In this document: positions 18,677 through 19,187 of the stretch, piece after piece
Position numbering within the stretch: the stretch's first letter is position 1
Layout of the letters: every line of letters starts with the position of its first letter
The notes under the pieces: model-generated
What the model saw: the letters and a program-made list of their open reading frames with translations, nothing else
What the model was told of the DNA's origin: nothing
Database searches by the model: none
NCBI GenBank assembly: GCA_965204535.1
Contig: CBDBEV010000001.1
Coordinates: 480,001-544,000, forward strand
Origin: a bacterium
GTDB lineage: Bacteria; UBA8248
Direction of reading: 5' to 3'
Length of the DNA: 64,000 nucleotides
Position numbers and translations under genes: made by a program

Positions 18677-18883
18677 TCCCAAGATATTGTATCCACAATT
18701 CATCGCAACACTATATATAGAATCTACGTAAATGATTGCTTTATTTGCGCTAATGCGGTTATCCCCATCTGGATAACCTGTGGGTAAAATCACCTTTTTA
18801 ACCCAATATATTGTGCAGTTATACGAAAATATACTATATTTTGTATCAAATTTCTTGACAGATCCAAGGAATCGGCTTACATT
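18677..18883 (+). promoter_or_regulatory. Two tandem pairs of NrdR boxes, DnaA-like boxes and a sigma70 promoter
   Basis: Cores CAAGATATTG 18680, CTATATATAG 18711, CAATATATTG 18804, CTATATTTTG 18834 (31 and 30 bp spacing); GTATCCACA, TTATCCCCA, TCTGGATAA, TGTGGGTAA; TTGACA 18855 -17- TACATT 18878. Confidence 0.7.
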
Positions 18884-18886
18884 GTT

Positions 18887-19048
18887 GGAGAAGGGTAGCA
18901 GAGCAAAGTCACTTCAGCACGAGTTCAGGTAGGCGCGTCCGCCCCTCATCTTCGCTGGAAAAGCAATTTTTGCAGGCAAGTCGTCGACGTTTTGCGTGAT
19001 GATTGGCGGAAGAGTGATCCCTCCGGGCATCGCCTGCCCTTTCCTTCC
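18887..19048 (+). ncRNA. Candidate structured ncRNA (rod-like; unassigned)
   Basis: Begins just after the promoter; AAGGGTAG/CTGCCCTT, TCACT/AGTGA, CCGCC..TCATC/GATGA..GGCGG nested pairings; no credible ORF. Confidence 0.35.
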
Positions 19049-19152
19049 AGAGGATGCCCCTATCCTACCCAGGGGCCCCCACGGGGCCCCATAAATATGA
19101 AAAGCCGGGAAACGAGACCCTGCGCCGGACGCTTGCATGCGCCGTTCAGGAC

Positions 19153-19187
19153 AAAAAAGCCCCCCTCGCCGTGAGGGGGGCATTCTT
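19153..19187. terminator. Intrinsic terminator downstream of hflC
   Basis: AAAAAA-GCCCCCCTC-GCCGT-GAGGGGGGC-ATTCTT. Confidence 0.75.

Follow-up and report, generated by a model that had tools for sequence, protein, structure and literature searches.

What do paired NrdR boxes, clustered DnaA boxes and a strong promoter control where no nrd gene follows them? This question is raised by a short intergenic locus in the window (the whole 64,000-nucleotide stretch of DNA analysed here, G000:C2:480001-544000, with G000 its source genome), for which a preliminary description had offered an NrdR/DnaA-controlled small RNA, a part of oriC, or an orphaned nrd promoter. NrdR loaded with ATP/dATP binds pairs of boxes and comes off when dATP is low. 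In the accessible text of two reports its release at low dATP is described (PMC12051234, PMC12176259), and the operator is a pair of 16-bp palindromic boxes with a spacer of either 14–17 or 24–27 bp (PMC12051234). As far as the available part of a further report goes, box pairs and a direct NrdR response in E. coli and P. aeruginosa are confined to reductase operons, and no non-reductase gene of these species has more than one NrdR box (10.1101/2025.03.28.645925).

The locus very probably contains a conserved NrdR/DnaA-box promoter together with a real non-coding RNA. As an explanation of the whole we tentatively propose that this promoter drives an RNA of ~300 nt, whose CU-rich loop would repress AG-rich ribosome-binding sites.

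Location and features of the element

The element occupies a 681-bp gap between a cupin-domain gene and the convergent hflC gene of a 4.56-Mb, 95.7% complete genome. Our own gene calling in G000 (3,979 genes genome-wide) places no gene in the gap and none of the six reading frames is conserved, in agreement with the earlier statement that no credible ORF lies before hflC. The stretch matches all 22 other genomes of the same genus and none of 18 other genomes, and the block is present in all 23 genus genomes; the order cupin – element – hflC is seen in 22 whole gaps, the exception being G003, whose gap is divided between two contigs, and in two metagenome contigs. The features are as follows, with coordinates in the window.

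18163..18525, + strand: left neighbour, cupin-domain gene (PF07883)
18677..18692, unstranded: NrdR box 1 of the distal pair; 15.0 bits, 11–16 bits in 20 of 21 relatives, lost in G019
18689..18697, + strand: DnaA box overlapping NrdR box 1; one mismatch, 1–2 mismatches in all 22 aligned genomes
18708..18723, unstranded: NrdR box 2 of the distal pair, 31 bp from box 1; 21.0 bits, lost in G019 only
18729..18741, - strand: putative IHF-site-like motif between the two halves
18759..18767, + strand: DnaA-like 9-mer
18768..18787, - strand: tandem DnaA boxes 18768-18776 and 18779-18787, 2 bp apart
18801..18816, unstranded: NrdR box 3 of the proximal pair; 19.0 bits, 13–22 bits in all 22
18831..18846, unstranded: NrdR box 4 of the proximal pair, 30 bp from box 3; 19.2 bits, 8–22 bits in all 22
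18855..18883, + strand: sigma-70-type promoter, TTGACA-17-TACATT (hexamers and spacer)
18889..19190, + strand: non-coding transcript of about 300 nt, with start and strand deduced from promoter and terminator, and with RNA contigs
18928..18935, + strand: segment that can pair with 19031-19038; paired in 96% of cells, with one two-sided change that is also seen by eye in G010
19025..19059, + strand: core hairpin 1, whose 7-bp stem closes a CU-rich loop of 21 nt (19032-19052) that is the predicted seed; stem 100% paired and almost invariant
19072..19090, + strand: core hairpin 2, G/C-rich; 98% of cells paired, two-sided change in G019 by eye
19159..19191, unstranded: two-way intrinsic terminator shared with the convergent hflKC operon; hairpin in all 22 aligned gaps
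19201..20112, - strand: right neighbour, hflC (TIGR01932, above cut-off)

NrdR and DnaA boxes

The four NrdR boxes described earlier as two pairs at 31 and 30 bp are borne out, scoring 15–21 bits with a matrix built from the NrdR consensus; the distal pair (15-bp spacer) ranks third and the proximal pair (14-bp spacer) first in the 4.56-Mb genome. Among 2000 dinucleotide shuffles of the AT-rich segment 18640-18890, none reaches the observed number of NrdR pairs, seven reach the number of NrdR boxes, and none reaches four one-mismatch DnaA boxes. Identity to G000 is higher within the boxes than between them in 20 of 21 relatives (the two are equal in the near-identical G002), and both exceed the flank in the 19 relatives at greater distance (in G011, 0.86 in the boxes, 0.65 between them and 0.42 in the flank).

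The DnaA boxes fare less uniformly. The preliminary description had listed a cluster of one-mismatch boxes, from which those at 18689, 18768 and 18779 are conserved; the 9-mer at 18759..18767 has 2–4 mismatches in 15 of 21 relatives, and is probably incidental. The motif between the two halves differs at one position from the IHF consensus, and its AA, TG and T columns are invariant in 22 sequences; G000 has ten matches to the HU/IHF family.

G000 encodes a full-length nrdR (TIGR00244) and a single reductase, the 1196-aa NrdJ at C2:294145, whose promoter has the same DnaA tandem, NrdR boxes and a TTGACA hexamer. With a model of the box block, the nrdJ promoter is recovered at 10 of 12 same-genus nrdJ loci and at none of 18 from other genera. 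Pairs of NrdR boxes weaker than those of the element precede nrdJ, dcd, mutL and a presumed operon of mreB type (apart from nrdJ, pyrG, rplA, hflC and the cyclase, genes are named by the look of their sequences).

No box overlaps the core promoter, box 4 ending 8 bp upstream of the -35 hexamer, unlike in the nrdJ promoter and unlike NrdR operators that overlap the RNA polymerase site. Repression by NrdR is therefore not certain, and its effect could be of either sign. In its paired 16-bp palindromic boxes, 14–15 bp spacers and combination of a proximal with a distal pair the element resembles Listeria monocytogenes nrdAB as presented in the accessible text of PMC12051234, where the accepted NrdR spacer range of 14–17 bp accommodates both the 15- and the 14-bp spacer. 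The presence of both NrdR and DnaA motifs recalls E. coli nrdAB, and DnaA binds the E. coli nrdA promoter according to the available portion of PMC12176259. The element differs from the NrdR operators of reductase promoters in that a non-coding RNA, and no nrd gene, stands under its presumed control.

Promoter, transcript and distribution

The TTGACA-17-TACATT promoter reported previously is present at 18855-18883, and in the form TTGACA-17-TAnnnT, with a variable spacer sequence, it is kept in 19 of the 23 genus genomes. The terminator placed after the RNA was also recovered, at 19159-19181, and is predicted to work on both strands. A candidate minus-strand promoter, CTGTCA-17-TATAGT, was rejected, as its -10 falls in NrdR box 4 and varies among relatives.

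RNA contigs of 155–256 nt lie inside 18887-19156 in all six sponge metatranscriptomes, from two studies, that were chosen by their match to this stretch; such contigs show no strand, ends or level. They span 18887-19071, ~18891-19043, 18901-19114, 18901-19152, 18901-19156 and 18902-19130, four thus starting at 18901-18902, one at 18887 and one near 18891. The four runs of one study match G018 with 0–1 differences and share the same contig start, and an hflC-side contig is absent in three of the four runs compared with G018. Because of this absence, and because the left contig edge falls just after the -10 hexamer, the simplest reading is a + strand RNA running from ~18889 to the terminator, about 300 nt in length instead of the ~160 nt first proposed. 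In the six runs no RNA contig covers 18695-18886, with one cupin-end contig reaching 18694; this lack of contigs over the NrdR/DnaA boxes is a weak hint only.

A model of the RNA core matches 19 of the 23 genus genomes and misses G001, G007, G009 and G015, and promoter and core co-occur exactly, both being present in 19 genomes and neither in the same four. In a three-gene tree the early branches are the sister genomes G001 and G007 together with G009, G015 and G019; the partial loss in G010 is separate, so that the co-occurrence rests on about three events. G019 retains a strong promoter, the proximal NrdR pair and, of the RNA, only the two 3' core hairpins. In the 13 RNA-bearing genomes at greater distance, core identity is 0.90–1.00 versus 0.38–0.52 for the flank. 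Six of the 23 genomes have lost the RNA or carry a broken copy, so it is dispensable.

Beyond the genus, the RNA-core model gives three matches at E 0.02–0.03 in 28 genomes, none with an NrdR box upstream, the box model gives two weak matches only, at mutL and dcd promoters, and exact-pattern scans recover same-genus copies only (two in metagenomes and 11 in genomes). The RNA is known from just one genus of uncultured sponge-associated bacteria, and the transcript is probably a genus-restricted, expressed non-coding RNA gene. With respect to the small RNA under NrdR/DnaA control that had been envisaged, the RNA is supported by conservation, by promoter–RNA co-occurrence and by RNA contigs, and the control is predicted from the motifs. 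The motifs, promoter, terminator and lack of an ORF in the preliminary description thus hold; its 160-nt rod is not supported, and of its clustered DnaA boxes only three are conserved.

Proposed mechanism and predicted targets

The best-kept part of the RNA is 19023-19095, comprising the 7-bp hairpin with its 21-nt CU-rich loop, a linker and the G/C hairpin, and hairpin 1 is kept in the core-only RNA of G019. In our tentative proposal, low dATP or a falling dNTP supply would release NrdR, and the RNA, nrdJ, dcd and mutL would be switched on in concert; DnaA, possibly aided by an IHF bend, would tie the response to the cell cycle. The CU-rich loop would then pair with AG-rich ribosome-binding sites and block translation without Hfq. 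Such base pairing is a conceivable mode of action, to be viewed with marginally more reserve than the proposal as a whole. At the weakest step, the RNA would damp pyrG (CTP synthase), a DacZ-like diadenylate cyclase and rplL (L7/L12), which would spare ribonucleotides or limit an excess of dCTP; pyrG lies inside an operon, so the RNA would allow its separate control.

The Listeria LhrC1-5 RNAs offer the closest parallel for the RNA itself, with two stem-loops and a single-stranded joint, a CU-rich loop and complementarity to AG-rich ribosome-binding sites, and in the accessible part of the same report these CU-rich sRNAs repress AG-rich ribosome-binding sites independently of Hfq (PMC13350326). 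As in LhrC-type sRNAs, the element has its own promoter and terminator and a discrete non-coding transcript, of deduced strand and ends. It differs from LhrC1-5 in having no sequence relation (no Rfam match), a length of ~300 nt, a single copy and NrdR/DnaA boxes, and its targets are predicted. Neither Hfq nor CsrA has a match in the 95.7% complete G000, and a role as CsrA sponge was rejected on the lack of a CsrA match.

Targets were sought by comparing the seed 19030-19049, picked after a first scan with five segments, with the 3,979 predicted start regions of G000. The top rank is taken by pyrG (-31.4 kcal/mol, with a 13-bp helix over the start codon), followed by rplA (rank 2), the DacZ-like cyclase (rank 3, a 14-nt perfect complement) and rplL (rank 7), and pyrG remains at rank 1–3 of 3,979 over seven seed windows. 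The pyrG energy is not exceptional, since the top match is better with two of 25 shuffled seeds. Mean energies over 17 RNA-bearing genomes are -30.4 kcal/mol for pyrG, -28.9 for the cyclase and -26.1 for rplL (16 genomes). We rejected rplA, which despite its rank is not conserved (mean -19.2 kcal/mol, range -9 to -31, 17 genomes), as well as nrdJ, dcd, dnaA and mutL (ranks 399, 523, 3794 and 2045). In the first five-segment scan guaA had come fifth for a middle segment of the RNA.

The pyrG site is exact in 14 of the 17 RNA-bearing genomes and changes compatibly with the seed in G003, where it still pairs; the pairing is broken in G014 and G020, and G007 keeps the site without the RNA. On the 17-genome tree the cyclase site has a single, G-U-compatible change versus a mean of 15.6 in upstream windows. 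Comparison of this tree with the six RNA-less or partial genomes gives 1 vs 5 changes for the cyclase site and 5 vs 12 for pyrG, with several non-targets among the 19 start regions showing a like asymmetry (e.g. 7 vs 19 and 13 vs 25). The seed change in G006, G008 and G022 introduces a mismatch into the DacZ-like duplex. The pyrG and the DacZ-like sites both run into the end of an upstream coding region, and this can account for their conservation. With the variant seed of G019, pyrG of G000 comes at rank 89 only, and in its own genome this seed matches nusB-like and hisH-like starts. The target evidence is a lead, not a result, with pyrG, the DacZ-like cyclase and rplL as candidates; that pyrG is a true target is rather doubtful.

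An RNA arm of NrdR in its most specific form, in which low dATP frees an Hfq-independent sRNA that shuts off CTP synthase and diadenylate cyclase with DnaA timing, is a shade more doubtful again; if this reading is true, ribonucleotide supply and c-di-AMP signalling also come under the dNTP sensor. If NrdR does bind here, its regulon is wider than the reductases and has a post-transcriptional output, the strongest NrdR pairs of the genome preceding a non-coding RNA and others preceding dcd, mutL, the mreB-type operon and the gene of a 73-aa ORF. These implications concern an RNA of one genus that is lost in some members and whose targets are predicted. The open-access literature yielded neither an NrdR-controlled small RNA nor a description of this element; the nearest item listed is the long nrdAB 5' UTR of P. 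aeruginosa (PMC12528414).

Alternative readings of the locus

With the same promoter and RNA, the transcript could instead act through its fold, as the binding partner of a protein or ligand, and the CU-rich segment would be kept by internal pairing. Part of the loop can pair within the RNA with 18928-18935 or with the 5' end, two complementary segments that could mask the seed and partly reduce its accessibility, so that internal pairing gives a structural explanation for loop conservation too. The pairings proposed join the 5' end to 19060-19065, and 18928-18935 to 19031-19038; the latter is a possible pseudoknot with core hairpin 1 or a seed-masking helix. The cells of the proposed structure are paired in 93% of cases, three of 40 pairs change on both sides (as reached in 8 of 500 shuffles), and the lack of Hfq and CsrA matches also favors a folded RNA. 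On the other hand, the overall covariation score is the same as the mean of the shuffles (189 of 500 attain it), most pairs are invariant, the structure was proposed from the same sequences, per-sequence folds disagree on which helix forms, and G019 lacks both internal partners yet has the CU-rich loop. A folded RNA of this kind is on the whole unlikely.

Within the RNA, it is the two-hairpin 3' core that is conserved. The long rod of ~160 nt proposed earlier finds no support: 18889-19058 is no more stable than shuffles (z -0.18, with 80 of 200 as good), and its middle helix is the worst kept of all (84% of cells paired). The z of -2.97 for the whole 308 nt is attributed to the two 3' hairpins. 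Rfam gives nothing at the gathering score, with ten weak matches at E up to 10 and none near the cut-off. Although a stand-alone RNA gene with possible end-to-end pairing is reminiscent of 6S RNA (RF00013), which had been named for checking, the element has no RF00013 match, the rod is neither stable nor conserved and the true 6S gene of G000 is at C2:1171655; a 6S-like identity was thus rejected.

It is improbable that the DNA itself is the working part, acting as a DnaA/NrdR sink or as a datA/DARS-like element around the IHF-like site, with the RNA secondary. Its boxes do persist in the four genomes that lack promoter and RNA core, and are strong in G015 and G009; its NrdR pairs outscore those of nrdJ, and the locus lies 155–306 kb from dnaA in 11 of the 13 genomes with both on one contig. 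The presence of three DnaA boxes in a non-coding region outside oriC, the IHF-like site and the fairly constant distance from the origin recall E. coli DARS1/2 and datA as defined in the accessible text of PMC4585315. Unlike theirs, its DnaA boxes are imperfect, interleaved with NrdR boxes and coupled to a promoter, and they are relaxed after RNA loss in G001/G007. In these sister genomes identity is 0.77 in the boxes, close to the 0.67 between them and below the 0.84 of four-fold sites, which points to box decay. Furthermore, the DnaA tandem is shared with the nrdJ promoter, of the three conserved DnaA boxes just one attains a perfect consensus in any genome, and the distance to dnaA can be plain synteny.

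That the element is the decaying promoter and leader of a lost nucleotide-metabolism gene is more improbable still. Its proximal half does match the nrdJ promoter, six of 23 genomes have lost or shortened the RNA, and in the sister genus (G023, L073) the cupin–hflC gap holds an unrelated lipoprotein-like ORF and no NrdR boxes. Against this, the 22 whole gaps and the two metagenome contigs hold neither an nrd gene, which in relatives would have pointed to simple deletion, nor any other inserted gene. Family genomes have exactly one reductase match (38 of 41) or none (3 of 41), and nrdD is absent from 51 class genomes, so no lost second nrd gene is in view and an orphaned nrd promoter, as had been suggested, is unlikely. 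The RNA core is also far better kept than the flank, and at 30 nrd loci its model never scores better than E 0.67.

A short peptide encoded by the transcript, either in a + frame through the core or in a 38-codon - strand ORF behind a strong Shine-Dalgarno-like run, is very unlikely: one core + frame has 13 of 26 changes synonymous against 27% expected, and 16 of 16 sequences have the - strand ATG and purine run, but six frames were tried, the + frame lacks a common start and ribosome-binding site and shifts register in G018 and G021, and the - frame is neutral over its length and cut off or shifted in at least 6 of 16.

Nowhere in the genome are one-mismatch DnaA boxes packed more densely than in the element, which lies 69 kb from the cumulative skew minimum of contig C2, yet its proposed identity as part of oriC is virtually excluded, since in all four relatives sampled (G002, G007, G011 and G019; 20 blocks of 20 kb from each) the skew flips at or near dnaA and has one sign throughout the locus, G000's own skew pattern being explained by its rearrangement relative to G002. 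An origin has DnaA boxes, trio-like repeats and an AT-rich run, and the dnaA–recF gap has all of these in the three genomes read. In G000 they lie between dnaA and recF at C2:1870160-1870390, the likely oriC judging from its sequence; dnaN is not beside dnaA. Contigs C1 and C2 of G000 show several skew switches, and a collinearity break relative to G002 close to the element, which point to large inversions or misassembly.

Other NrdR-type sites and neighboring genes

The second-strongest NrdR pair of the genome, at G000:C2:1188951-1189270 (L189), precedes a 73-aa ORF without Pfam or NCBIfam match, and both pair and ORF are also found in G014. Further NrdR-type pairs are at C1:293385-293530 before dcd, with three DnaA-like boxes, and at C2:1331063 and C2:1594442 (mutL and the GAF-protein/mreB-type operon). 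The mutL and dcd promoters carry NrdR-type boxes in another family too, and the distribution of these motifs suggests a wider NrdR regulon in this class. The fourth-strongest NrdR-like pair, at G000:C2:1544789, lies in AT-rich DNA beside a transposase-like gene and may be due to chance.

Elsewhere in the window, a tRNA with a long variable arm (12131-12219, - strand) is the sole Rfam match. Adjacent short ORFs on the - strand of 16395-17580 (16782-16928 followed by 16395-16763, and 17443-17580 followed by 17089-17361) look by eye like two redoxin-type genes, each split in two. At the matching break in G019 there is, again by eye, an in-frame TGA after a C-x-x motif, and these redoxin-type genes may therefore be selenoproteins.
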